A stretch of DNA of 49,526 bases from the sequence record NC_054894.1. One strand, 5' to 3'. Position numbers and translations under genes: made by a program. Below, one piece after another: positions 4,002-40,000 of this stretch. Source of the DNA: Escherichia phage Henu7. Under the pieces are notes generated by a model. It saw only the letters and a program-made list of their open reading frames with translations. It did not search any database and had not been told where the DNA came from. Numbering within the stretch: the first letter of the stretch is position 1; every line of letters starts with the position of its first letter.

Positions 4002-4059
4002 GACTCGCTCCAATAAAAAAATCGCGTAGCCGGATGATACCAGATACGCGATCTTTGAT

Positions 4060-4500
4060 TTAGCTATTTGTGCTGTTTATGAAGTCCGACTCTTTCACTA
4101 CGCGCAGCATTTCGTATCGGTCACATTTCGTCGTTAGCGCTTTGCCGTTTGAGTCAAATCTCAGATCTGGACGGCAGAATGAAGCGCGATAGCCCTTGCA
4201 GCCGTTTCGCTTATAGTCGGCGTGAACCTTTTCGGCTCCAGAAACGGAAATCATTCCGCGCTTGCGCCACTGCTGGATAACCTGGTGAGTAACCTTTAAG
4301 CGCCTTGTCATTTCTGCCTGAGATCCGTAATATTCGCAAACGGCATCCAGACGAGCACGCAATCCGGCTTTGACTTCATCCTTTAGAACGTAGTAGCCTG
4401 TTTTTCGCTTGCGCTTTTTCTTGTCCTTACCGCGCTTTACACCGTTGTTGCCATTGATTGTGCGCTTGTCAATTTCGCCAGTTGATGCAGCAATTTTCAT
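4060..4500 (-). CDS. helix-turn-helix DNA-binding protein (candidate early regulator)
   Basis: Start at ATG 4500 with GGAGG RBS; basic region KDKKKRKRK; HTH-like segment SQAEMTRRLKVTHQVIQQWRKRG. Confidence 0.55.
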   Translation of the reverse strand: MKIAASTGEIDKRTINGNNGVKRGKDKKKRKRKTGYYVLKDEVKAGLRARLDAVCEYYGSQAEMTRRLKVTHQVIQQWRKRGMISVSGAEKVHADYKRNGCKGYRASFCRPDLRFDSNGKALTTKCDRYEMLRVVKESDFINSTNS

Positions 4501-4532: not shown

Positions 4533-4589
4533 ACATTCAAAACGTATGCGCTATTATACATTCAATCGGTTAACGAATAAAGGTTAAAA

Positions 4590-16153: not shown

Positions 16154-16347
16154 TATTCACTCTCCAGTACGGTTACAGGATCCAGACGCTCCAGCACAAC
16201 TTTGAAGTCGGCAAAGAATGTCGGCCTACGTTCGGTTAACTCTGTATAGGTGTCAGTCGCCAGCGTTGCGCATTCACCTTCATAGCACACCACACGCTTT
16301 CCGTTCTCGCGACTGATTGCCACCACGCGATAGGTATTCTTGACCAT
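16153..16347 (-). CDS. hypothetical protein
   Basis: GGAGG RBS; ATG overlaps upstream stop. Confidence 0.45.
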   Translation of the reverse strand: MVKNTYRVVAISRENGKRVVCYEGECATLATDTYTELTERRPTFFADFKVVLERLDPVTVLESE

Positions 16348-16547
16348 TAAATAACCTCCATCACAGTATGCTCGTCACCAGCAAGTGACCAGAGAGTGTT
16401 AGTAAGTTGCTTCACTTTCCAGGTTAGGCCGGAGTGATAGCAGACCATTTCCTCAAGGTCTATTGTGATCTCAACGCCTTTCTTGAAGATCCCACGCGTC
16501 AGCTCTGGATTGCGGCGAATAACTTTAACGTCGATCTGGTCTTGCAT
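16347..16547 (-). CDS. hypothetical protein
   Basis: Start ATG 16547 with RBS CTGAGGAA and leader AACGAAAC; the longer track ORF starts at a TTG inside the palindrome. Confidence 0.45.
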   Translation of the reverse strand: MQDQIDVKVIRRNPELTRGIFKKGVEITIDLEEMVCYHSGLTWKVKQLTNTLWSLAGDEHTVMEVI

Positions 16548-16604
16548 TTTTGATTCCTCAGTTTCGTTTTGTTGAGGCAATGATAGCGCATCGCCTCTGA
16601 TTGG

Positions 16605-16625
16605 TTTTAGCAAATCGTGCTATTC
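16605..16625 (-). promoter_or_regulatory. palindromic element
   Basis: Minus strand reads GAATAGCACGATTTGCTAAAA then TATCAT hexamer and CAACAAAACGAAAC leader. Confidence 0.45.
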
Positions 16626-18383: not shown

Positions 18384-18539
18384 ATGGTTACACTGATTAC
18401 CTGGGAGCACGAGAGCAGCTACGCGGTAGTACGCGAGTTTGATTCAGTAGCAGCGTGCTACAGCCTGGCCGCTAACGGCGGTTTCTACAAAGCGCAGATT
18501 GTAAACGAGTTTGGGGTTGTTGATTATGAGTTTCATTAA
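18384..18539 (+). CDS. small hypothetical protein (51 aa)
   Basis: RBS GAGGAG; not in ORF track because of length. Confidence 0.4.
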   Translation: MVTLITWEHESSYAVVREFDSVAACYSLAANGGFYKAQIVNEFGVVDYEFH

Positions 18540-19413: not shown

Positions 19414-19581
19414 ATGAAATCTCGCAAATACCGCAATATCTTCAACGGCCTGACCTACTGGCTGGAGAACGGAAAAGTTATGGTGCAGAAGAACTACGTG
19501 ATCAGGGAGTCGCTCCTCTCTGGAAGCGAGTTCTTTGTGGCGGTTGCCCGTGACATTCTGGTACTGATTGAGGAGGAATAA
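19414..19581 (+). CDS. hypothetical protein (55 aa)
   Basis: RBS GAGGAG after conserved leader. Confidence 0.45.
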   Translation: MKSRKYRNIFNGLTYWLENGKVMVQKNYVIRESLLSGSEFFVAVARDILVLIEEE

Positions 19582-19584
19582 TAA

Positions 19585-19827
19585 ATGCTGTCAATTCGAA
19601 ATTGGTTTATGCGCCTCATTGGGAAAGAGGTTGGGGCTTTCGGTTATAACATCCCTGCAAACTTCAAGCGTGCTTGCCCTGGCAACTCCAGCGGGGTTTA
19701 TTGGGAAATGCCAGACGGCACATTCTGGTTCACTGTAATTTCTGGAACGTCAATCCAGGTTAGTGAGCGCGGCTATGAGCGCGGAACGTGGCTTACAGCA
19801 ATGCTGGAAGTAGGGGAGGAATTTTAA
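19585..19827 (+). CDS. hypothetical protein
   Basis: RBS GAGGAGG. Confidence 0.5.
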   Translation: MLSIRNWFMRLIGKEVGAFGYNIPANFKRACPGNSSGVYWEMPDGTFWFTVISGTSIQVSERGYERGTWLTAMLEVGEEF

Positions 19828-20360
19828 TGATCAAGTTTGAGATTTGGGGTTATACATACTATCTGCGCGGCACTTACGGCGTTGCAATCGTTGACCTGGA
19901 CGGCACACTGAGCGACGGTTCGCACCGATTGCACCTGCTACCAACAAAGGACTTGCACCTCACCGAAAGCTGGAGCGAGTTTAACAAGGCGGCTATTGAC
20001 GACAAGCCGATCCAGAGCACGATTGATGTTGTGCGTAACCTTTGGCGTGCTGGGATGGGAGTAGTTATCCTGACTGGTCGCAGTGACGAGGTTGAAACAG
20101 ACACTATCCTTTGGCTAGACCGCCACAAGGTGAAATATGACTGGCTTATCATGCGCCGCGCGGAGGACAACCGCAAGGACACCGTTATCAAAGAGGAAGT
20201 GTTGCGTGCAATCGGCCTGCATCATATTACGTGCGCCTTTGATGATTCGCCAAATGTGATCAACCACTTCCGCAGCCTTGGAATCACAACCTATCAGGTG
20301 ACGGAATACGATAAGCCGCATTCTCATTTACAAAGTCACGGCGTGGAGGAGTTGAAATGA
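19827..20360 (+). CDS. HAD-superfamily phosphatase (nucleotidase or polynucleotide 3'-phosphatase-like)
   Basis: HAD motif I IVDLDGTLSDG; downstream ILTGR and FDDSPN resemble HAD motifs II to IV; start ATG 19827 overlaps upstream stop. Confidence 0.6.
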   Translation: MIKFEIWGYTYYLRGTYGVAIVDLDGTLSDGSHRLHLLPTKDLHLTESWSEFNKAAIDDKPIQSTIDVVRNLWRAGMGVVILTGRSDEVETDTILWLDRHKVKYDWLIMRRAEDNRKDTVIKEEVLRAIGLHHITCAFDDSPNVINHFRSLGITTYQVTEYDKPHSHLQSHGVEELK

Positions 20361-20512
20361 TTAGCGCATGGATTTTGGTATCGATCTCATATTACGGTGG
20401 GTTGCAGCCAATCGAATTTACCAGCCACAGTGCTTGCGTGGAGGCGCTAGAGGTTATCAAAAATAATACTCCTGGTAGCTGGTCTAACACTTATGTTTGC
20501 GTGAAGAAGTAA
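20357..20512 (+). CDS. small hypothetical protein with hydrophobic N-terminus (51 aa)
   Basis: ATG overlaps upstream stop (ATGA); N-terminus ISAWILVSISYYGGL. Confidence 0.4.
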   Translation: MISAWILVSISYYGGLQPIEFTSHSACVEALEVIKNNTPGSWSNTYVCVKK

Positions 20513-20524
20513 AGGGGCTGAGCA

Positions 20525-20740
20525 ATGATTATTTCACACAACGTTGAACCAAGCGCAAACACTGCGCGTGATATGATTGCCGGAATGCCGCCAAAATCTC
20601 ACAGAATTGTACGTGTACGCGGTTATAACTTCAACGTAAGCCAAACACTCAAGGAAATTTTAGCCTTGCCAGAGGTCGATACAGCGCTTGTGGGAGTGCA
20701 TACAAATGAGTATGTTTCTTTCCACATTGTGACGAAATAG
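20525..20740 (+). CDS. hypothetical protein
   Basis: RBS AAAGGGG; stop TAG lies inside the next palindromic element. Confidence 0.5.
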   Translation: MIISHNVEPSANTARDMIAGMPPKSHRIVRVRGYNFNVSQTLKEILALPEVDTALVGVHTNEYVSFHIVTK

Positions 20741-20755
20741 CACGAATTGCTAAAA
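20737..20755 (+). promoter_or_regulatory. palindromic element plus TATAAT
   Basis: ATAGCACGAATTGCTAAAA, GC-rich segment, TATAAT, leader CCAACCAACGAGGAG. Confidence 0.45.
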
Positions 20756-20812
20756 CGCGCTCCGACAGGGGCGCTATAATTCACCCATACCAACCAACGA
20801 GGAGCAATAAAA

Positions 20813-21058
20813 ATGGAACAAGTAAAAGTTAAGCTAATTTCCAACGGTGGCTATAATGGTTTGAAACACCTTTCATTCCCAATTGTAGTTGATGGATTTG
20901 TGCATCCGGTTCTTGGTTACGTTGATGTGACAATGCGCGAGCTTGAGCGAGTCGGTTATGACTTTGAAAAGGGGCAGATCGGAGAAATTGCAGACTGCGC
21001 GAAAGATAGTGACTCTCTTACATTCTTCCAGGGTGGCGAGTGCGAGGTGTTGAAATGA
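20813..21058 (+). CDS. hypothetical protein
   Basis: RBS GAGGAG. Confidence 0.5.
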   Translation: MEQVKVKLISNGGYNGLKHLSFPIVVDGFVHPVLGYVDVTMRELERVGYDFEKGQIGEIADCAKDSDSLTFFQGGECEVLK

Positions 21059-21285
21059 AATTCCAGATCTTCAAAGCTATTGACAAAATCGACGGCGAGC
21101 TTTCACTTTTCATGTTCGACGAGGAAAACAACTACACTGTTATTGACTACTCGCCGGAAATGATTGGGCGCATGATTCGTGATATCAAGGCTGGCGGGGG
21201 CTGCCACTGGAGCGATAGCGCAAACGAAACTCCGCGCCGTGACGACATGCTTGATGCAGTTTTAATGTGTGAGTTTGAAGCATGA
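21055..21285 (+). CDS. hypothetical protein
   Basis: ATG overlaps upstream stop (ATGA). Confidence 0.45.
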   Translation: MKFQIFKAIDKIDGELSLFMFDEENNYTVIDYSPEMIGRMIRDIKAGGGCHWSDSANETPRRDDMLDAVLMCEFEA

Positions 21286-21473
21286 AGTGCATCAGGTCAA
21301 CATACGATCTATTCAAGGCGGGTGAAAGTTACCCGCTAATTGAGAAAGGCCAGGCTGGGCGGTTCACGTTGTACGAATACACAGACGCGAAAGGCTGGGT
21401 TTACACGTTCGGCCTCGACGAGAACGGCGAGAACGAAACAGACGGCAATTTCATTAAATTTACAAAGGAGTAA
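21282..21473 (+). CDS. hypothetical protein
   Basis: ATG overlaps upstream stop (ATGA). Confidence 0.45.
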   Translation: MKCIRSTYDLFKAGESYPLIEKGQAGRFTLYEYTDAKGWVYTFGLDENGENETDGNFIKFTKE

Positions 21474-21477
21474 TAAG

Positions 21478-21708
21478 ATGATTGAGATCAAATTCGATGG
21501 CAACTCTAAGCCATTCAACGGCGTACAGATCCACAAAGATGCAACACACGCGGTAGCGGGTCGCAATTTCGGTACTTACTTTAAACTCAATGGCGAATGG
21601 TATTTCACAGTTTTCACTTGTCACGCGCTGAAAGTGGCGGTTATGTCTCATGACTTTGATATCAGCGATCACATCATGGACGGCGCAGAAATCACAGAGT
21701 TTAAATAG
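21478..21708 (+). CDS. hypothetical protein
   Basis: RBS AAAGGAG; stop TAG lies inside the next palindromic element. Confidence 0.5.
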   Translation: MIEIKFDGNSKPFNGVQIHKDATHAVAGRNFGTYFKLNGEWYFTVFTCHALKVAVMSHDFDISDHIMDGAEITEFK

Positions 21709-21723
21709 CACTTTTTGCTAAAG
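21705..21723 (+). promoter_or_regulatory. palindromic element plus hairpin containing TATAGT (module copy A)
   Basis: ATAGCACTTTTTGCTAAAG, hairpin GAGGCCATTGG-TATAGT-GGCCTC, leader TTGAAAGCAACCAA. Confidence 0.45.
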
Positions 21724-21786
21724 ACTTTCCGCGAGGCCATTGGTATAGTGGCCTCATTGAAAGCAACCAATCAAAAGGAAAACGAA

Positions 21787-22122
21787 ATGAAATTAGTTCG
21801 CAATGCGGTGTATGGCCTGGAAACAAGCGGCGGAATGATCCAGGTTTTTCATGTGGCAAACAACGGACACATTCAGATCGCGATGTATCGTGACGCTCGC
21901 GGCGCTTGCCAGCCTGGTTATAGTGGCGAAGTGCGAATGATGTTCAGCATGATTCAGCGGCAAGCTGATCACATCAATAACCACGATCACTGGATCGAAG
22001 ATCTCAAACGCAAAGGTGTGATGATAGCAAGTCACGTTATAGACCCGATGAAGCTCACCTCTCGCGACTATCGCGAAATGGCGAGAAAGGCAGCAAAGAA
22101 ACTGAATATCACGAATTGCTAA
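21787..22122 (+). CDS. hypothetical protein
   Basis: Start ATG 21787 with RBS AAAGGAAAACGAA; the longer track ORF reads through the regulatory unit. Confidence 0.5.
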   Translation: MKLVRNAVYGLETSGGMIQVFHVANNGHIQIAMYRDARGACQPGYSGEVRMMFSMIQRQADHINNHDHWIEDLKRKGVMIASHVIDPMKLTSRDYREMARKAAKKLNITNC

Positions 22123-22124
22123 AG
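22106..22124 (+). promoter_or_regulatory. palindromic element (degenerate left half) plus hairpin containing TATAGT (module copy B)
   Basis: ATATCACGAATTGCTAAAG followed by a near-identical copy of the 21724..21780 module. Confidence 0.4.
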
Positions 22125-22187
22125 ACTTTCCGCGAGGCCATTGCTATAGTGGCCTCATTGAAAGCAACCACGCAAACAGGAGATAAA

Positions 22188-22346
22188 ATGCGTAACTTTG
22201 AGAAAATCCGCACTAACAAAGACCGCCGCGCTGCTGGTGAGATTGTAGATTCACACCGTCGCCGCAAGAAAACACAAAAGCGCGGGAGTGCGGCAAAGCG
22301 CATGGATTTGGAACAGCTTCAAACTAACTACAAGGTAGGTCGATAA
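22188..22346 (+). CDS. small highly basic protein (52 aa)
   Basis: RBS CAGGAG; Arg/Lys-rich sequence KDRRAAGEIVDSHRRRKKTQKRGSAAKR. Confidence 0.45.
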   Translation: MRNFEKIRTNKDRRAAGEIVDSHRRRKKTQKRGSAAKRMDLEQLQTNYKVGR

Positions 22347-22915
22347 TGAAAAAGGTAATTATTCTCAACGCACCGCCAGGCGCTGGCAAGGACACAATCG
22401 GCAGCCTGATCTGCAAGCACGCTCCGCAATACGTTGTTAAGCGCTCATTCAAAGAGCCAATGTTTAAGATCGCAAAGGCTATGTTGGGCGATTATCGTTT
22501 CGGCCTGTTTATGCAAGCGTATGACGACAGGGGGCAGAAAGAAAGAGCGCAATCGTTCCTGAATGGTAAATCACCTCGCCAGTTTATGATCTGGATTAGC
22601 GAGGACGTGATAAAACCTCAGTTTGGGAATCAGTATTTTGGTTCGGTAATGGCTGAGGCGGTGAGAGATAGCCAAGTGCCAGTTGTCATTACTGACGGAG
22701 GTTTTCCAGATGAAGTTAAGCCACTGGTTAGTGCTGGCATTCAGGTAAACATTTGCCGATTGCACCGCACAGGATATGCGTTTGATGGTGACAGCCGCGA
22801 TTATCTAAACCTGGATGGCTACCATCACCGCATTGTTACGCGAGATTACATTCTTGTGCATGGTGATCCAATGCACACGGTAGACCAGATTTGCGAGGAT
22901 ATATTAAGTGATTAG
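22346..22915 (+). CDS. P-loop nucleotide kinase (dNMP-kinase-like)
   Basis: Walker A NAPPGAGKDT, resembling the GxGKDT P-loop of phage deoxynucleoside-monophosphate kinases (from memory; not confirmed by search); ATG overlaps upstream stop. Confidence 0.55.
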   Translation: MKKVIILNAPPGAGKDTIGSLICKHAPQYVVKRSFKEPMFKIAKAMLGDYRFGLFMQAYDDRGQKERAQSFLNGKSPRQFMIWISEDVIKPQFGNQYFGSVMAEAVRDSQVPVVITDGGFPDEVKPLVSAGIQVNICRLHRTGYAFDGDSRDYLNLDGYHHRIVTRDYILVHGDPMHTVDQICEDILSD

Positions 22916-23011
22916 CACACCGAACGATCCAAAAGAGCCGTTTGACTTCCACAAGGCAGCCGTTATCGGCCTTACAATCCTGACTGTCATTTACACTGCA
23001 AGAGGTATTTT

Positions 23012-23209
23012 ATGGCTTCTAACACACTAAAGCGAATCGGCGTTATCATGCTAATTATCGGAGGGTCATTGCTAACAGAGCCAGGTTTTGCAAACACGGC
23101 TGGAGGTATGGCGCTGTTAATAGGCGGTCTTATTGGTGGCTACATGGACGGCGTAAAGGCTGGTCGGCGCGAGGCGTTCGGAGGCGAAGATAAAAATCCG
23201 ATCAAATAG
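23012..23209 (+). CDS. small membrane protein (two predicted transmembrane segments)
   Basis: RBS AAGAGG; hydrophobic stretches IGVIMLIIGGSLL and GMALLIGGLIGGYM. Confidence 0.5.
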   Translation: MASNTLKRIGVIMLIIGGSLLTEPGFANTAGGMALLIGGLIGGYMDGVKAGRREAFGGEDKNPIK

Positions 23210-23224
23210 CACGAATTGCTAAAA
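23206..23224 (+). promoter_or_regulatory. palindromic element plus hairpin (module copy C)
   Basis: ATAGCACGAATTGCTAAAA followed by a sequence related to module copies A and B, with TAAAGT. Confidence 0.4.
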
Positions 23225-23290
23225 CTTCCGCGAGGGCATTTGGTAAAGTGTCCTCATTGAAGCAAAGCAACCAATCAAGGAGATAACGAA

Positions 23291-23569
23291 ATGGCTACTA
23301 TCCGCAAACACCTGGTAAACGCATTCGAGAACGTAGGCGAGCGCTACGGCTGGGATGATGGACTGAAAACACCGTACACGGCACGCCGTCAAGGTTTCAA
23401 CTCACTGCGCGAGTGGGCGCGTTGCATGGCAGCTAACTACATGCCGGAGAACTGGCAACTTATGCCTGACTCGCTGCGCGAAATGATCGAAGAAGCACAG
23501 GCGGCAGGTGTGCCACTCACTCAGCATGATTTTGACGACTACGCAGAGGAAGAAATTTTATGCTGGTGA
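23291..23569 (+). CDS. hypothetical protein
   Basis: RBS AAGGAG. Confidence 0.5.
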   Translation: MATIRKHLVNAFENVGERYGWDDGLKTPYTARRQGFNSLREWARCMAANYMPENWQLMPDSLREMIEEAQAAGVPLTQHDFDDYAEEEILCW

Positions 23570-23754
23570 AAATCCGCACGGATTATGACGACTCGCCGTG
23601 GATAGCGGCTGGTAAGATTTACGAGGCGGTATTGGTCAAAACAGGCCGCTACGCAGGAACGTATAAGTTTATTGGGGAGTTAGGCTCCCCGTGCTACACA
23701 AGACTTGAGCACTCTGTGCATATCAACGGAAAAGATTGGGAGATTGTAGAATGA
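23560..23754 (+). CDS. hypothetical protein
   Basis: Overlaps the upstream ORF by 10 nt. Confidence 0.45.
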   Translation: MLVKIRTDYDDSPWIAAGKIYEAVLVKTGRYAGTYKFIGELGSPCYTRLEHSVHINGKDWEIVE

Positions 23755-24206
23755 AATATTATGTACGCCCTACTGTGGACGGTGAAAACTTTACTGCTGG
23801 CAAGCTCTACGAGATCCAGCGTTGTTTCGGTGGCGGTCGCTTTGTCGTGCTAAACGATGCAAAGGAGGAAATCATTGTGCGGTGCGATGGTATCGCGTCG
23901 GCTCGCCTGAATTGGCGCGGGAGATTTGAGTGTGTGAGCATTCCAAGTGCGCAAGAAGCAGTTGGGTCGGCACAGCAAGCGGCGGCGCAAGCCTTTCGGG
24001 ATATGTGTAAGGGTAGCGGATGGCGCATTGAGAAAGGCGGGGTGTTTATCGCAAGCAGTAGTTTCAAGGCGGCAGATAAAGATCCAAATGTCGAAGTCCT
24101 GGAAAAGCTGCGTGAAATCCTGCGCGTACCGGATGGTGAGAACATCCTGACACATGCGAAAGTTGTGCGCGTGCTGGCTGACGGGTTAATCAACCTCCAA
24201 AAGTAA
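23751..24206 (+). CDS. hypothetical protein
   Basis: ATG 23751 overlaps upstream stop (ATGA). Confidence 0.5.
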   Translation: MKYYVRPTVDGENFTAGKLYEIQRCFGGGRFVVLNDAKEEIIVRCDGIASARLNWRGRFECVSIPSAQEAVGSAQQAAAQAFRDMCKGSGWRIEKGGVFIASSSFKAADKDPNVEVLEKLREILRVPDGENILTHAKVVRVLADGLINLQK

Positions 24207-24207
24207 A

Positions 24208-24226
24208 ATAGCACTTTTTGCTAAAA
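24208..24226 (+). promoter_or_regulatory. palindromic element plus hairpin containing TATAGT
   Basis: ATAGCACTTTTTGCTAAAA, hairpin GGGGTAGGCTGG-TATAGT-TACCCC, leader ATCGAAACGAAAC. Confidence 0.45.
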
Positions 24227-24282
24227 CTCCGATGGGGTAGGCTGGTATAGTTACCCCATCGAAACGAAACGGAGATATCAAA

Positions 24283-24501
24283 ATGTCAGTATTTACAGAA
24301 AGCTACTTTGAAGCCCGTCGCACTTACGGCGCAATCATGGCGGGTTGCCAGTATGAGCTTGTGGCAACCGATGATGGATATGGTCTCGTGATTGACGATT
24401 GCGGCACTTGCTACGAGGTGACTTTCGATAAGTATGATCCAGATGTGGCAATGCTGAAAAATGCACCACTGATTAAATTTGACCGTGTGGAGGAAGAATG
24501 A
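24283..24501 (+). CDS. hypothetical protein
   Basis: RBS ACGGAG after conserved leader. Confidence 0.5.
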   Translation: MSVFTESYFEARRTYGAIMAGCQYELVATDDGYGLVIDDCGTCYEVTFDKYDPDVAMLKNAPLIKFDRVEEE

Positions 24502-26215: not shown

Positions 26216-26241
26216 AGCCCCGCGTTTGCGGGGTTTTTTTG
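26216..26241 (+). terminator. intrinsic terminator ending rightward early operon
   Basis: Hairpin CCCCGCGTTTGCGGGG followed by TTTTTTT. Confidence 0.75.
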
Positions 26242-26813: not shown

Positions 26814-28385
26814 ATGCTTATATGGGAAGATTTAACAGTGGCGCAGAAACGCGCCATTAAAGAAATGAGTGAATACTCTTTTGAGAAGATGATCCGAATC
26901 TGGTTCCAGTTGCTACAGGGTCAGAAATTCCTGGGTAACTGGCATTTCAGTTATTTGTGTCACGAGGTGGAGAAAATCATTTCCGGCGAGTCGCAAAACG
27001 TGATCTTTAACATCACGCCAGGCTCAGGCAAAACTGAGGTTTTCTCGATCCATATGTCGCCCTATGCGTCACTGAAAAGCAGGAAGGTGCGAAACCTCAA
27101 CCTGTCATTCTCTGATGGGCTTGTCCAGCAGAACAGCAACCGGATAAAAGAAATTATAGGCTCTCCAGAGTGGCAAGAGTTATGGCCTGGCAAGCTGGCA
27201 AAAGCAAGCGCAAAAGATCTGATTGTTCAGGACGGCAACGGCAAGGTTAAATTGCAGGTCAACTCTCGCTCCATCGGCGGCCAGGTAACGGGTTTGCGTG
27301 GCGGCTATATGGATGATGGATTTACCGGAATGTTGGTACTTGACGATCCAGATAAACCTGACGACATGTTTTCAAAGGTGCGGCGCGAAGCGATTCACAA
27401 CCGCCTAAAAAACACCGTCCGATCTCGTCGAATGAAGGACACAACGCCTATCGTGATGGTTCAGCAGCGGCTACACGTCAACGATTCGACGTGGTTTATG
27501 ACGAGCGGCGGCATGGGCGGCATTGAGTTTAAAGTTGTGAGCATTCCGGCGCTGGTCACGAAAGAGTATGGCGATTCGCTCCCTGATTGGTTAAAACCAG
27601 AGTTTGAGCGTGACGTGCTGAATAGCGATCCAGTTTACATTGACGGCGTGGCGCACTACTCATTCTGGCCTGCAAAGGAGAGTGCAAAGGACTTGCTCTC
27701 GCTACGCGAAGCTGATCCATATACTTTTGCGTCTCAGTACCAGCAGCAGCCAATAGCGCTGGGTGGCAACGTATTCAAGGTGGATTGGTTCCAGTTTTAC
27801 GGCGACGGCGAGAAATGCACGCTGCCTAAACCGGATCGCTTTGAATATACGTTTATCACTGGCGATACTGCGCAGAAAGCCGGAGAGCTTAACGACTACT
27901 CTGTTTTCTGTTATTGGGGCATGTTCAAGAATCGCGTTTACTTCATTGACGGCATCCGTGGAAAGTGGGAGGCTCCAGAACTTGAAACCAACTTCAAGGC
28001 GTTTGTCAATCAATGCTGGAAGCGTAATAAAGAGTGCGGAAGCTTGCGACGGATCCACATAGAGGACAAAGCGAGCGGTACGGGTCTGATTCAGGGGGCG
28101 CAAAAGAGCTTACCTATTGATATAAATCCCGTTCAGCGAAGCACGGACAAAGTTACCCGCGCAATGGATGCCGCGCCAGTTATGCGAGCAGGACGCGTTG
28201 CGCTGCCAGAGAGTCACCCGATGTTAAACGAGATTCTCGCAGAGGTAGCAGCTTTCACTTTCGACGACTCGCACCCGAACGACGATATCGTAGATAACAT
28301 CGTTGATGCTGTTAACGTTGAAATGAACCTGGCAGACGATCCAGTAGCGCGAATGAAAAAGCTTGCTGGGCTACGGAAGAAATAG
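26814..28385 (+). CDS. terminase large subunit
   Basis: 523 aa; P-loop-like ITPGSGKTE; acidic nuclease-type C-terminal half; followed by portal gene. Confidence 0.75.
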   Translation: MLIWEDLTVAQKRAIKEMSEYSFEKMIRIWFQLLQGQKFLGNWHFSYLCHEVEKIISGESQNVIFNITPGSGKTEVFSIHMSPYASLKSRKVRNLNLSFSDGLVQQNSNRIKEIIGSPEWQELWPGKLAKASAKDLIVQDGNGKVKLQVNSRSIGGQVTGLRGGYMDDGFTGMLVLDDPDKPDDMFSKVRREAIHNRLKNTVRSRRMKDTTPIVMVQQRLHVNDSTWFMTSGGMGGIEFKVVSIPALVTKEYGDSLPDWLKPEFERDVLNSDPVYIDGVAHYSFWPAKESAKDLLSLREADPYTFASQYQQQPIALGGNVFKVDWFQFYGDGEKCTLPKPDRFEYTFITGDTAQKAGELNDYSVFCYWGMFKNRVYFIDGIRGKWEAPELETNFKAFVNQCWKRNKECGSLRRIHIEDKASGTGLIQGAQKSLPIDINPVQRSTDKVTRAMDAAPVMRAGRVALPESHPMLNEILAEVAAFTFDDSHPNDDIVDNIVDAVNVEMNLADDPVARMKKLAGLRKK

Positions 28386-28400
28386 CACGAATTGCTAAAA
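28382..28400 (+). promoter_or_regulatory. palindromic element between terminase and portal genes
   Basis: ATAGCACGAATTGCTAAAA, then terminator-like hairpin GGCTGGACTTTTCCAGCC plus T-run at 28413..28440. Confidence 0.4.
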
Positions 28401-28456
28401 GCGTGTACAATGAAGGCTGGACTTTTCCAGCCTTTTTTATTATGGGAGATCAGATA

Positions 28457-29737
28457 ATGACCGAGAAAACAAAACTCGTTAAGGCTGACGGCTACAACGA
28501 GATCTTTAAGGGAGAGCAGCGAGTAGAAACGCCATTTTATATGCAGGGCGGCGTTGCAAAACAAAGTCTTGCAACATTCTACGAGCGTGACGGTATGGCA
28601 AAGAGAATCATCGACGTGATCCCTGAGGACATGGTTACGCCAGGCTTTAACGTTGACGGCGTGAAAGACGAGGCAGCATTCCGCTCTTTGTGGGATGAAA
28701 AGAAGCTAAACGCTAAAATCATTGACGCGCTTTGCTGGTCGCGCTTGTTTGGCGGCTCCGCTATTGTCGCAGTTATCAACGATGGGCGCATGTTGAAATC
28801 TCCAGTTAAAGAGGGAGCGCCACTTGAAGATATTCGCGTTTATGACCGATTCCAGATCCGAGTTGAGAAGCGAGAAACAAACGCGCGTAGCGTGCGCTAC
28901 GGCGAGCCTGTTTTGTACACCATCATGCCAGGCGGCGAGATTCCAGAGTATCAGGTGCATTACACGCGAATCTGCATTATTGACGGAGAGCGCTTGCCTA
29001 ACGAGCAGCGCCGGAAAAATGATGGTTGGGGTGCGTCAGTCCTCAACAAGAAGCTGATCGAAGCAATCCACGATTACAACTATTGTGAGGAGTTAGCAAC
29101 TCAGCTTTTACGACGCAAGCAGCAAGCAGTTTGGAAAGCCAAAGGACTCGCTGATTTGTGCGACGATGAAGAAGGTATGTCGGCGGCGCGGCTGCGATTG
29201 GCTCAAGTTGACGACGAGGGCGGCGTTGGTAAGGCAATCGGCATTGACGCAAATGACGAGGAATACGAGGTGCTTAACTCTGATATTTCCGGCGTAGACG
29301 CTTTCCTTGAGAAGAAAATGGATCGCATCGTTTCGCTTACTGGCATCCATGAAATCATCTTGAAGAACAAAAACACCGGAGGCGTTAGCGCAAGCCAAAA
29401 CACCGCGCTTGATACATACCACAAGCTAATTGAGCGCAAGCGCAAAGAGGACTACAAGCCGATCCTGGAGTTCCTCTTGCCATTCATGATCGCAGAGCAA
29501 GAATGGTCTATTTCGTTTGATCCGCTTTCGGTTCCAAGTAGCAAAGACCAGGCTGAGATCTTGAATAAAAACATTGAATCGATCAGTAAGGCGATTGAAG
29601 GTCAGTTTATGGATGTTGAGGAAGGACGCGACACATTGAGATCTATCGCTCCATCTCTTAAACTGAAAGACGGCAACAAAATCAAGCTACCGGAGCCGGA
29701 GCAGGAACCGGAGCCGGAGCCAGGAACGGAGGTCTAA
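28457..29737 (+). CDS. portal protein
   Basis: About 427 aa directly after terminase; RBS GGGAG before ATG 28457; acidic C-terminus with EPEPEP repeats. Confidence 0.65.
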   Translation: MTEKTKLVKADGYNEIFKGEQRVETPFYMQGGVAKQSLATFYERDGMAKRIIDVIPEDMVTPGFNVDGVKDEAAFRSLWDEKKLNAKIIDALCWSRLFGGSAIVAVINDGRMLKSPVKEGAPLEDIRVYDRFQIRVEKRETNARSVRYGEPVLYTIMPGGEIPEYQVHYTRICIIDGERLPNEQRRKNDGWGASVLNKKLIEAIHDYNYCEELATQLLRRKQQAVWKAKGLADLCDDEEGMSAARLRLAQVDDEGGVGKAIGIDANDEEYEVLNSDISGVDAFLEKKMDRIVSLTGIHEIILKNKNTGGVSASQNTALDTYHKLIERKRKEDYKPILEFLLPFMIAEQEWSISFDPLSVPSSKDQAEILNKNIESISKAIEGQFMDVEEGRDTLRSIAPSLKLKDGNKIKLPEPEQEPEPEPGTEV

Positions 29738-34427: not shown

Positions 34428-34798
34428 TGAATTACGCTAACATTGCACGAATGGCTAAATCTGGAATCGCGTTTTTCAGTGATCGTAATGGGGTGTTTAA
34501 GCTTATCACTAGCGGAGGCGGCGTTGAGATTGTCGGCGGAGTTGAGGTTGAAAAGCCGGAGCAATCCACAACAATTAAGGGGCTTATTCGAGCGCCAAAA
34601 GTCCGAGAGGTTGACGGAGAAACAATCCGTGTGACGGACAAGCTGGGAGTGTTTGACGCAGACATTGAGATCAAGAACGGAAACCAGATCGAGGTTGACG
34701 GCGAGCGGTATGTTGTCGTTGAGGCAAGACCAATCAGACCGACAGGGCTAACGGTTGCTTATCGCCCGATACTGCGGAGGGTTGCGGTTCATGGCTAA
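34421..34798 (+). CDS. head-tail adaptor-like protein
   Basis: Synteny; overlaps neighbouring genes. Confidence 0.35.
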
Positions 34799-37029: not shown

Positions 37030-40000
37030 ATGGCGGAACAATACGCAGGCTTGACGTTAGGCGTTGACGTTCAGCAGGTAAACAACGCAGTTAAATCCCT
37101 GAGGGATTTTAAGACCGCTTCCGAGGGTGCGGCTGATGGTCTTGAGTCTTTCGTCAATGAGGAGCAGATTGCCAGACAGAGAGCCAAAGATTTGGCCTCA
37201 GAGCTTGCAAAGCAGAGAAAGGAATTTCAGAGCGTACAGGCCGCAATAGATCCGACTGCGGCAAAAATGGAGCGACTAAAGGTTGCTGCGGCTGACCTTG
37301 ATAAGCTTTGGAAAAATGGAGTGGTTCCAGACGAGACATTTTTCCAGCTTGGAGAAATGATTGAGGCTCAGACAAACAAGCTTGCAGCAAACAGAAAAGC
37401 GTTAACGGCTGAGGGCATGGCGGCAATCGAGGAGTCAAAGCAGAAAGCTAAAGCGGCGGCTGAGGCTCAGAAATTCATTGCGGCTCTTGAGGCGCAAGCT
37501 GCTGCTGCTGGCAAGACGCAATCCGAACTGATGGAAATGAAAGCGGCTCAACTTGGTGTTACAGCGCAAGCGGCTCCATTCATTGAGAGAATGCGCCAGC
37601 AAGAGCAAGCGACACAGAAACTTGGAATCTCAATGGGTCAGTATAACCAAGCTATGCGAATGCTTCCGGCTCAGATCACTGACGTTGTAACGTCGCTTGC
37701 TTCCGGTATGCCTGTTTGGATGGTTGCAATTCAGCAGGGCGGTCAGATTAAGGACTCTTTCGGCAGCATAGGGAATGCATTTCAGGGGCTGAAAGATTTA
37801 ATCCTTGGTGCGGGCGTAGATATTAATGAATCTCTGGATGAAACCAGCGAAAACGCCAACGATCTTGCTGAGGGTTTTAATAATATAGCCGATGCTGGCG
37901 GTAGGGTTGGCGGTCTCGCTAGGTTCATTAACCCAGTAACCATCGGTGCGGTTGCCCTTGTTGGTGCTATCGCAGCAATTGCAAAAGCTGGTTTCGATGC
38001 GTGGAAGTCACAAAGGGATCTGGCTAATGCTTTGGTAATTACTGGTGGATATGCTGCCACTACCACAGGGCAGATTGACGATCTGGCGAATGAATTGAGC
38101 GAGACTTCAAGCGCAACTTCCGGAAGAATCAAGGATATCGCGTCAACTTTGGCATCCTCTGGGAAATACACTGTTAGCCAGATTAAGACCATTACCAAGA
38201 CTACTGCGGAATGGGAAGCGCAAACAGGAGAGAGCAGCGATAAAATCAAAGGGTACTTTGACATGATTTTAAAAGATCCTGTCAAGGGTCTTGTCGAACT
38301 TAACGATAAATTCAACTTCCTGAATGAAGGGCAGCTAACCTATATTGATACACTGAGCAAAACCAAGGGCGAGGTAGCAGCAGCAGATGAAGCGACAAAA
38401 CTATTTGCTGAAACGATGGATAAGCGACTGAAAGATGTGGCTGACAGCGCAACACCTCTTGAAGATATGTGGATGGATATCAAGAAGTGGGCGTCAGATG
38501 CATGGGATTGGGTTGGGGATCACACGATGGCGGCGCTTAACCTGATCATTGACGTTGTAGCCGGAACGGTTGAGCAGGTTCGTTATTTGCTTAATCAGGG
38601 TGATATTCTCATTGGTGAATTTATTATATCTGCAACAAATGCTATGCAAAAAATACCTGGTCTTGATGGTGTTGGTGACTCAGTAATTGCAAAGCAACAG
38701 AATATTATAAATAACGCTAAGGAGAACAACAAGGAGCTATTAAAATCAATTGCCGAACGTAACGAGCGAGTCAAAAAAGGCGAGCAGGGTTACATTGACA
38801 TGATGAAAAATCGTGCAGCGGTTGAACAGCAATATGCGACAAAAACAAAAGAGAATATCAGGAAGGAAGCCGAGGAATTAGCTAAGCGCAACAAAAAGCA
38901 AAAGGCTGAAAAAGCTAAGGTATCGGCTGGCGATAAGCTGGAAGAACAATATCAGCGTGATATCCTTGCGCTAGAAACTCAATTAAGAGTTTTGAAAGAG
39001 CACAAGACGATCACAGATACAATAAGCCAGCAACGTAAATCTTTATGGGCTGAACAAGCTAAAATTCAGATTTTGCAAGAAGCCTCAACAAAACGGCAAC
39101 TTACTGATGAAGAAAAAAGCATTTTAGCAAACAAAGATAAGATCCTGGCGATGGCTGAACAAAAAGCTATTTTGGGCGATCAGATTGTTGCGCAAACGCG
39201 CCTTAATCAGTTGCAAGATAGCTCAATCAAGTTTATCCAGCAGCAGAAAGCAGCAACGGAAGCACTAGCCAAAACCAGAGGGTTAAGTGAACGTGAAGCA
39301 GCAAGAGCGGAGGAACGTGCAAAGGTTGAGGCTGATTATCTTGCCAAAGGAGGCAAGGAAGGAGATCCGCAACTCACCGCAATGATGGATGAATTAGACA
39401 ATCGCTATAAAGAGGAAGATGCTAAACGTGCTGATTGGTTGGCTGGCGCTAAAAATGCCTTTGCGGAGTACGGCGAGGAAGCAATGAACATGTATGATAA
39501 TATCGGCAACATTGCGAGCCAGGCGCTAAACGGCCTATCGCAACAAATGTCTGATTTTTTGACTACTGGACAAGCCAGCTTCAAAGACTTTGCAAAATCG
39601 ATCATTAGCATGATTGTTCAGATGATCACAAAGATGGTTATCTTCAATAGCATTTCCGGCATGATGGGCGGCTCAACCTGGACAATGGGATCGCTAATGA
39701 GCGGCTTCTCGTCTGGTGGGTACACTGGCGACGGCGGAAAGTATGATCCGGCTGGCATTGTTCACAAAGGCGAGTTTGTTTTCACTAAGGAAGCAACGCA
39801 GCGAATCGGCGCTCGTAACCTTTACCGCCTGATGCGTGGATATGCAAACGGCGGCAGCGTTGGCGGCTCAGGTTACAGCAGGGCTTCAACTGGCGGCGCT
39901 GGACTTGCTTACTCGTTCGGTGATATCAACGTTGATATCAACAACGGGAGCGATCCAAAAGGTCTTGAAACTGGTGTTAGAATGCTTGTTGCTGATATGC

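Follow-up and report, generated by a model that had tools for sequence, protein, structure and literature searches.

Escherichia phage Henu7 (NC_054894.1) carries three related intergenic modules, which begin at positions 21705, 22106, and 23206, in an array of small early genes. The present analysis covered the whole stretch of 49,526 nucleotides (nt), which is hereafter referred to as the window. Each module starts with a conserved 20-nt box. The first two modules, hereafter the twins, measure approximately 80 bp each, sit in the array between the polynucleotide kinase and terminase genes, and enclose a gene designated X, with gene A upstream and gene B downstream. The features of the locus are as follows, with the marbox being the published site consensus of the host stress regulators MarA, SoxS, and Rob.

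21478..21708, plus strand: gene A, 76 amino acids (aa), DUF7274; its TAG stop (21706-21708) forms positions 2-4 of box 1
21705..21724, plus strand: box 1, ATAGCACTTTTTGCTAAAGA, a copy of the Drexlerviridae 21-nt direct repeat with one mismatch to the marbox consensus
21715..21769, plus strand: 55-nt block, copy 1, matching 22116-22170 except at 21743
21733..21755, plus strand: stem-loop GAGGCCA/TGGCCTC of 7 bp, with the -10-like hexamer TATAGT (21744-21749) in its loop and 3' arm
21787..22122, plus strand: gene X, 111 aa, phrog_8382, between the twins; its TAA stop (22120-22122) lies inside box 2
22106..22125, plus strand: box 2, ATATCACGAATTGCTAAAGA, of the G-type, with G4 changed to T and two mismatches to the marbox consensus
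22116..22170, plus strand: 55-nt block, copy 2, with stem 22134-22140/22150-22156 and hexamer TATAGT at 22145-22150
22188..22346, plus strand: gene B, 52 aa, T7 gene 1.1-like, PF08200 (E=1e-4)
23206..23290, plus strand: third module, with box ATAGCACGAATTGCTAAAAC at 23206-23225 and a Shine-Dalgarno (SD) sequence, followed by ATG at 23291
23232-23238/23249-23255, plus strand: stem of the third module, GAGGGCA/TGTCCTC, with a G-T wobble
23244-23249, plus strand: hexamer of the third module, TAAAGT, 18 nt past the box

Gene B heads an operon with the deoxynucleoside monophosphate (dNMP) kinase gene (22346-22915).

The segments 21715-21769 and 22116-22170 were identical except for one mismatch in 55 nt (G at 21743, C at 22144), and a repeat search of the window returned the twin copies as a 97-nt pair with 81% identity. 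In gapped pairwise alignments of the 58 nt after the box, the pairs 21705/22106, 21705/23206, and 22106/23206 showed identities of 93, 86, and 81%, and ranked first, second, and third among the 276 pairs formed by all 24 copies of the motif in the window, which were extracted in register (median 57%, 95th percentile 69%). A preliminary description of this DNA had reported near-identity of the first two segments over approximately 55 bp and a clear relationship to the third, and both statements were confirmed; identity limited to the short palindrome was ruled out because the similarity runs well past it. The description had also noted that the first two segments generate identical N-terminal read-through translations (MLKTFREAI...). 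The translation is correct, but it represents an artefact of open reading frame calling: the shared frames start at TTG codons inside the box (21715 and 22116) without an SD sequence, whereas the true starts are ATG at 21787 and ATG at 22188, each of which is preceded by an SD sequence.

A megablast search with positions 20500-24500 matched 357 phage records, the best of which were Enterobacter phage vB_EclS_AS5 (hereafter AS5) and Escherichia phage IsaakIselin at approximately 91% identity, both of which belong to Drexlerviridae, Tempevirinae, Henuseptimavirus. The whole AS5 genome was colinear with the window, and, thus, the window is an essentially complete genome of a T1-like phage of Drexlerviridae that resembles Henuseptimavirus. 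Phage T1 itself, which is used for comparison below, belongs to a different subfamily from the phage of the window. Genes for an exonuclease VIII-like (RecE-like) protein, an annealing protein, and a single-stranded DNA-binding protein are present in the phage, as assigned by colinearity with AS5, IsaakIselin, and T1.

Architecture of the Modules

Regarding the palindrome TAGCA-N5-TGCTA, by which the modules were first recognized, four of its five dyad pairs were well kept, but positions 1, 7, 11, 17, and 18 of the box were equally conserved and are asymmetric. The element is the 21-nt direct repeat of phage TLS, aaATAGCACnnnTTGnTAAAA, which has 18 intergenic copies in TLS, oriented along transcription approximately 76 nt before start codons, and also occurs in T1, Rtp, and Rogue1 (PMC11447400). 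All three modules and approximately 20 others in the window match aaATAGCACnnnTTGnTAAAA, copy 2 of the twins with a G to T change in ATAGCAC. The TLS repeat and the box are alike in their intergenic location, orientation with transcription, distance of approximately 76 nt to the starts, and T, G, and A subtypes in the middle. The GenBank record of Citrobacter phage Stevie lists the same element as repeat_region features of 22 nt, and, in an exact-pattern scan of IMG/VR, contigs with several copies of the box were almost exclusively 46-53 kb long, a range typical of Drexlerviridae. The authors of the TLS study suggested that the repeats are stoperators, enhancer sites, or UP elements, and left their function as an open question (PMC11447400). 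That study is confined to the 21-mer; its fixed connection to a -10 hexamer 18 nt away, the stem-loop and its covariation, the stop codons within the box, the indels of whole cassettes, and the match to the marbox are not part of it.

The module copies outside the three described above span 2957-49167 on both strands, with position 1 of the box at the following coordinates.

Plus strand: 2957, 4514, 7006, 8475, 8816, 18307, 19334, 20737
Plus strand, continued: 24208, 28382, 34442, 42604, 49148
Minus strand: 4076, 13791, 14489, 15793, 16623, 16963, 32652, 46614

The 24 copies aligned in register on the box, the strand of which follows that of the gene. The parts are arranged in the order of an upstream stop codon, the 20-nt box, a GC-rich stem-loop, a TATAAT-like hexamer, an A/C-rich leader, an SD sequence, and ATG, with the ATG and its SD sequence being located 72-85 nt from box position 1. 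The box takes the consensus form ATAGCACnnWnTGYTAAAAC, and the upstream stop lies in or beside it, either as TAG at positions 2-4 or as TAA at positions 15-17 or just before. The hexamer matched TATAAT at 4-6 of 6 positions and was separated from the 20-mer by 18 nt in most copies, by 17 or 19 nt in a few, and by 19 nt in the twins. The composite of box, gap, and TANNNT, with at most one mismatch, occurred 18 times in the window against 0.04 expected and 17 times in T1 against 0.06 expected. A usable -35 element was not found in the module copies of the window, in which this position reads AAAACN; TTGCTA as a -35 hexamer was rejected because it lies 22 nt from the -10 hexamer. A sigma-54 promoter (GCAC-N-TTGC) was also rejected. 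The sigma-54 consensus is TGGCAC-N5-TTGCW, with GG and GC doublets 12 nt apart, whereas in the box AG takes the place of GG and the doublets are separated by 10 nt.

The GC-rich inverted repeat is placed in the spacer or around the hexamer and varies in sequence. The 36 nt after the box had a mean minimum free energy of -11.1 kcal/mol, compared with -5.2 +/- 3.0 for random 36-mers, with z < -2 in 15 of 23 modules, and the stability of the sense strand of this segment exceeded that of the antisense strand by a mean of 2.4 kcal/mol. The stem of the twin subfamily reads GAGGCCA/TGGCCTC in the window and AAGGCCA/TGGCCTT at T1 3535 and in copy 2 of the IMG/VR contig L013. Further compensatory stems were AAGGGCA/TGCCCTT (T1 4864) and GAGGACA/TGTCCTC (contigs L014 and L015), and the stems GAGGGCA/TGTCCTC, GAGGTCA/TGGCCTC, and AAGGTCA/TGGCCTT contain wobble pairs on the sense strand. 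Covariation of the stems was established from visual comparison and ViennaRNA folding, since the alignment made with MAFFT displaced the 5' arm by one column in some rows. No Rfam family was found in the whole window at gathering thresholds.

This anatomy supports the earlier description of the units as regulatory cassettes. The module may represent a composite of an attenuator and an activator-dependent sigma-70 promoter, by which each short gene block would be self-contained. The repeat itself is known, while its architecture in T1-like phages, which resembles the promoter-early stem-loop (PeSL) cassettes of T4-like phages discussed below, and its match to class II marbox promoters both appear to be new.

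Several other sites in the window also combine promoter-like and terminator-like signals. At 28382-28445 on the plus strand, a perfect box directly follows the large terminase gene, the TAG stop of which lies in the box. No -10 hexamer occurs at 18 nt from this box, and a canonical terminator of hairpin and T-run (AAGGCTGGACTTTTCCAGCCTTTTTT) and then TATTAT follow, as also observed in AS5 at 28854. In the module that precedes the primase gene (4020-4076, minus strand), TATCAT lies inside a long hairpin ending in a run of seven T (ATCGCGTA...TACGCGATTTTTTT), such that promoter and intrinsic-terminator signals are superimposed; a terminator is annotated at the equivalent place in T1. At 4544-4560, the TATTAT of the helicase module on the plus strand overlaps a perfect TATAAT on the minus strand that is aimed at the gene of the Cro-like regulator described below, which suggests overlapping divergent promoters; a canonical -35 element was not found for either hexamer at this site. 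A different repeat family, consisting of a terminator-like GC hairpin and T-run followed by TATAAT or TACAAT (TTGCGGGGTTTTTT...TATAAT), occurs in the late region at 26226, 40428, and 42564 on the plus strand, and may constitute a second kind of terminator-promoter unit. A minus-strand gene beside the lateral tail fibre region also contains direct repeats at 2071-2546, which are nested and have periods of 21 and 126 nt; identity to AS5 in this region was only 80%.

Gain and Loss of Genes at the Modules

Gene X had no Pfam domain, and its nucleotide sequence had no match among 50,697 phage records. Protein homologues were present in 297 records, all with less than 60% identity, and less than 50% among those listed. 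In TLS and Stevie, the homologue precedes the polynucleotide kinase gene, while in MikeNSara it follows this gene and lies four genes before the dNMP kinase gene. Homologues in other genera occupy other positions in the early array, always between modules, which are of other subfamilies. The idea that gene X moves with a fixed module type was rejected because the homologues in TLS and MikeNSara are flanked by other module subfamilies.

AS5 and IsaakIselin do not carry gene X; they have gene A (DUF7274), a single module, and gene B (T7 1.1-like). This single module is a hybrid that resembles copy 1 on its 5' side, with a T-type box, and copy 2 on its 3' side, with the leader of gene B. In the twins, the box part and leader part are of different types, and the switch between the types falls inside the identical core.

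Three closer relatives of gene X were found in IMG/VR, on contigs L013, L014, and L015, with aa identities of 95, 85, and 81%, respectively. L013 has the order A-module-X-module-B as in the window, with six differences among the 55 positions of its twin cores. This layout consequently has a longer history than the recent duplication proposed in the preliminary description would imply, and does not represent a fresh one. The near-identity of the twins in the window (54 of 55) suggests later homogenization or exchange by recombination, or may simply reflect the homology needed for exchange. In L014 and L015, X-module-B is kept, and the region upstream of gene X has a different gene and a leader that forms another hairpin and contains neither a box nor a -10 hexamer. 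Box 2 of the window has TAT in place of TAG, and gene X consequently extends by 14 nt to the TAA in the box; this change also costs the G of the GCAC element. The TAT is shared by L013, and TAG is retained in L014 and L015.

Breakpoints were compared with the whole genome of AS5 and, for IsaakIselin, along a stretch of 8 kb (17.7-26.3 kb). The comparison of the window with AS5 revealed 11 insertions, deletions, or replacements, of which seven had a breakpoint in a module, and the modules were touched in four of the six events with IsaakIselin. In the comparison with AS5, 10 of 22 breakpoints fell in modules, which make up 4.4% of the genome, and random placement predicts 0.87 (P < 5e-5). Against a null model in which breakpoints fall at any gene boundary, the excess was not significant (P = 0.16). 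The earlier designation of the modules as recombination hotspots consequently holds against random positions but not against gene boundaries, and the claim rests on the pattern of flanking repeats rather than on statistics. In three events (window 19334 versus AS5 19452/19709, the twins, and window 23206 versus AS5 23382), a single module in one genome aligned to both modules flanking the extra gene in the other, which is the signature predicted for exchange within a repeat.

Relative to AS5, a further extra gene with its module occupies 16347-16623 of the window, and the module-gene indels at 16347-16623, 19334, and 23206 are reciprocal between the two genomes. In other cases, the first gene after the module was replaced with a break at the leader or start codon, namely, at 18386, 20815, and 32605, and, in comparison with IsaakIselin, at 24285. 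The comparison of gene content between modules in related phages, which had been recommended for this locus, showed that X and other module-gene units differ between genomes. The absence of the twin-flanked gene X from the closest relatives and the other module-gene indels support the proposal of modular gene shuffling by these units. AS5 also carries two module-gene cassettes that are absent from the window (19452-19712 and 23382-23681) and an extra gene without its own module (22338-22526).

Homology over 20-55 near-identical nt common to all cassettes may allow units of a gene and its cassette to be inserted, deleted, or swapped by recombination, and units exchanged in this manner would keep every gene expressed. 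The RecE-like exonuclease and annealing protein of the phage could carry out this process. Gene X between the twins may be one such exchangeable unit: a circle consisting of X and one module would, through a single crossover inside the 55-nt core, produce the observed layout, in which copy 1 combines a box of the resident type with the leader of X and copy 2 a box of the foreign type with the leader of B. An insertion of X and its deletion from an ancestral A-X-B arrangement would fit the sequences equally well.

Alternatively, the twins may be conserved paralogous regulatory elements that are kept alike by functional selection, with genes being gained and lost at gene boundaries in general and the cassettes having no special role. 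The gene-boundary null model, which was not rejected, is consistent with this explanation and counts against a special role for the cassettes; indels also occurred at module-free boundaries (20347-20520, 22335, and 18925), and the same module subfamily is present in T1, which indicates that the similarity is partly ancient. However, the twins of the window match at 54 of 55 positions, a degree of identity that is not demanded by functional selection alone, whereas the orthologous twins of L013 show six differences and other functional modules share approximately 57% identity. The alignment of single modules to both cassette flanks in three events and the switch of box and leader types inside the identical core of the twins also argue against it. 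We consider this explanation to be unlikely, and exchange between the cassettes is preferred.

The Box as a Candidate Marbox

The published consensus for the binding sites of MarA, SoxS, and Rob is AYNGCACNNWNNRYYAAAYN. At a threshold of one mismatch, it matched the window 23 times against 1.11 +/- 0.93 expected, with none of 100 shuffles reaching 23, and 22 of the 23 matches were copies of the repeat. The commonest mismatch was A at position 19, as in micF. Among the 41 boxes of the window and T1, variation followed the degeneracy of the consensus (Y2, N3, R13-Y14-Y15): position 2 was T or C, and positions 13-15 read GCT, GTT, or GCC, while the recognition elements GCAC and (Y)AAA were nearly invariant. 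In micF of E. coli K-12, the marbox ACAGCACTGAATGTCAAAAC is followed after 18 nt by TAGAAT, which lies 7 nt from the annotated +1. The phage box shares with it a common frame, including A19 and C20, and a common gap and orientation. In the mar promoter, the reverse complement of the marbox, ATGCCACGTTTTGCTAAATC, was identical to the T-type phage box at 16 of 20 positions.

Class II marboxes are forward sites that overlap the -35 position and are centered at approximately -41. The phage box is also forward, lies over the -35 position, and is centered near -41, with a gap of 19 nt in the twins. Promoters of this class, for which micF is the paradigm, and the modules have in common an asymmetric 20-bp box, an 18-nt gap, and a non-consensus -35; they differ in that class II marboxes regulate host stress genes, whereas the modules occur in approximately 20 copies in a virulent phage with boxes that are far more uniform. 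Four box-like sequences with at most one mismatch to the marbox consensus, three on the plus strand (8816, 34442, and 42604) and one on the minus strand (37814), are located within coding regions or at their ends and have no -10 hexamer at the right distance; those at 34442 and 42604 are conserved in AS5, and that at 37814 is probably a chance match.

The reported hosts of T1-like phages are all enterobacteria with MarA/SoxS/Rob-type regulators. Searches of the six frames of the window with phmmer and hmmsearch --max yielded no homologue of MarA, SoxS, or Rob (best E approximately 1), and, thus, the reader of the box would be a host protein. It may be regarded as an even chance that the box is a class II marbox read by Rob, MarA, or SoxS of the host, or by RamA in Klebsiella and Enterobacter. 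A monomer of the regulator would bind the box over the -35 position and recruit RNA polymerase. The broader proposal, in which approximately 20 early and middle promoters of T1-like phages are near-optimal class II promoters run via MarA/SoxS/Rob (or RamA), the host activators of stress and antibiotic-resistance responses, and the cassettes double as a recombination substrate that shuffles accessory genes, falls slightly short of even odds in our judgment.

A number of points weigh against these proposals, in addition to the result with gene boundaries. Conservation of the box exceeds what the marbox consensus demands (A3, T11, and T12), and its dyad of four in five pairs, centered near -42, would also suit a dimeric phage protein with a helix-turn-helix (HTH). 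Box 2 carries T instead of G4 in the GCAC element. Rob is reported to be largely sequestered in the absence of inducers, yet T1-like phages grow well in ordinary media. The stem-loops have no U-tracts, and, thus, attenuation is proposed by analogy with PeSL cassettes. We found no link in the literature between the marbox or Rob and T1-like phages, and no transcription-start data for T1.

Promoter motifs that occur in many copies in a phage are usually explained by a factor that the phage itself encodes, and a candidate is encoded in the window.

4060..4500, minus strand: Cro-like regulator with a single HTH, 146 aa, phrog_2856, flanked by boxes at 4076 (minus strand) and 4514 (plus strand)

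The gene is annotated as a transcriptional regulator in T1 (gp23 family) and IsaakIselin and is conserved in all relatives. No sequence match was found for the protein in the PDB. Its AlphaFold model (predicted local distance difference test score of 87) shows an all-alpha, Cro-like fold with one HTH, together with a basic arm at the N terminus and a Cys-containing part at the C terminus, with Xfaso1 Cro and N15 Cro as the best structural matches in the PDB. A hidden MarA-like fold with two HTH motifs was rejected on the basis of this single HTH. Conservation of the protein was highest outside the HTH, in the basic N-terminal arm (DKRxxNGNNGxxRGxDKKxRKR) and in a C-terminal segment with G103, R105, A106, R110, P111, D112, and F115.

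The box may be the operator of this regulator, bound as a dimer on TAGCA-N5-TGCTA near -42, such that its likeness to the marbox would be coincidental; the regulator would either activate the early promoters, as lambda cI does at PRM and as the C-proteins do, or shut them off. The location of the gene between two boxes, the predicted fold, and the complementarity of dyad pairs 2-16, 3-15, 5-13, and 6-12 in at least 36 of the 41 boxes are consistent with this possibility. However, pairs 7-11 and 1-17 were complementary in none of the 41 boxes, the conserved positions 1, 7, 11, 17, and 18 are asymmetric, and the invariant G4 faces position 14, which is C in 27 boxes and T in 14. The element is also strictly oriented with the genes. 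Furthermore, the recognition helix (residues 72-81) was among the most variable segments in 54 homologues and differed at seven positions between T1 and the window, whereas the boxes are the same. That the box would agree by chance with the marbox at 13-14 of its 14 specified positions, and share the frame and gap of micF, is also improbable. We accordingly regard the phage regulator as a doubtful reader, with approximately half the probability that we give to a host activator; dual and other readings share the rest.

Comparison With Other Phage Cassettes and Repeats

In T4-like phages, PeSL cassettes consist of an upstream stop codon in an A/T-rich region, a sigma-70 promoter, a stem-loop, an SD sequence, and a start codon; the stem-loop contains G-T pairs and is mostly located between the -35 and -10 elements or over the latter (Arbiol et al., 2010, PMC2839356; Comeau et al., 2014, PMC4122927). 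These stem-loops terminated transcription in reporter assays, and recombination between the cassettes explains indels between RB49 and phi1 and yields mini-circles (PMC2839356; PMC4122927). The modules resemble PeSL cassettes in the order of the parts, the placement of the stem-loop, and the G-T pairs; both are found on either side of small ORFans, and the insertions, deletions, and replacements that distinguish close relatives have their ends in the cassettes. The modules share the anatomy and behavior of PeSL cassettes, and the idea of gene shuffling in the preliminary description is therefore largely right. PeSL cassettes have consensus -35 and -10 elements, whereas the modules have a good -10 hexamer (4-6 of 6) and, at the -35 position, AAAACN within a 20-nt activator-type box, and the two are unrelated in sequence and phage family. 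Terminator activity and mini-circles were demonstrated by experiments for PeSL cassettes and are predictions for the modules.

The middle promoters of T4 are similar in that numerous promoters of the phage retain a good -10 hexamer but have a conserved box in place of the -35 element. The MotA box of T4 is centered near -30 and read by the phage-encoded MotA, with sigma appropriation by AsiA. The module box lies approximately 10 bp further upstream. Neither a MarA-like nor a comparable two-domain activator was found in the phage, and homology to MotA or AsiA was not specifically searched.

The stoperators of mycobacteriophage L5, cited by the authors of the TLS study (PMC11447400), resemble the modules as many oriented copies of a short site between genes; however, they are sites at which the repressor of a temperate phage blocks elongation, and their position relative to a -10 hexamer is not fixed, whereas the spacing in the modules is. 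The repeats as stoperator-like roadblock sites or UP-element-like A/T tracts, instead of activator sites, are among the options offered in that study, and the box is A/T-rich and located upstream of the -10 hexamer. The distance of 18 nt to this hexamer without a usable -35 indicates an element that substitutes for the -35, and the invariant GCAC is unlike a UP element. T1-like phages are virulent and are not known to have a repressor system of the L5 type. The stoperator or UP-element explanation is highly improbable.

Discussion

The three segments are probably copies of a standard intergenic expression cassette of T1-like phages, with gene units being shuffled by exchange between the cassettes. 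From the anatomy and spacing of the modules, the covariation of the stems, the cassette indels, and the match to the marbox in sequence and geometry, we infer promoter and attenuator activities, the identity of the activator, and the pathway of recombination.

A repeat that was left with an open function may now be viewed as the upstream half of a promoter with fixed geometry, the box of which matches the marboxes of micF and mar, and this provides a concrete test. If Rob, MarA, or SoxS drives these promoters, phage gene expression would be coupled to the regulators of multidrug efflux and TolC, and wired to the xenobiotic, bile, and oxidative-stress state of the host. The many genome copies of the phage could also titrate these regulators. 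This would bear on phage-antibiotic interactions in a large family of phages in therapeutic use, with E. coli, Klebsiella, Enterobacter, and Salmonella as hosts. Apart from the marbox, the twins indicate that the shuffling of accessory genes in the style of the PeSL cassettes of T4-like myoviruses probably also operates in an unrelated family of siphoviruses.

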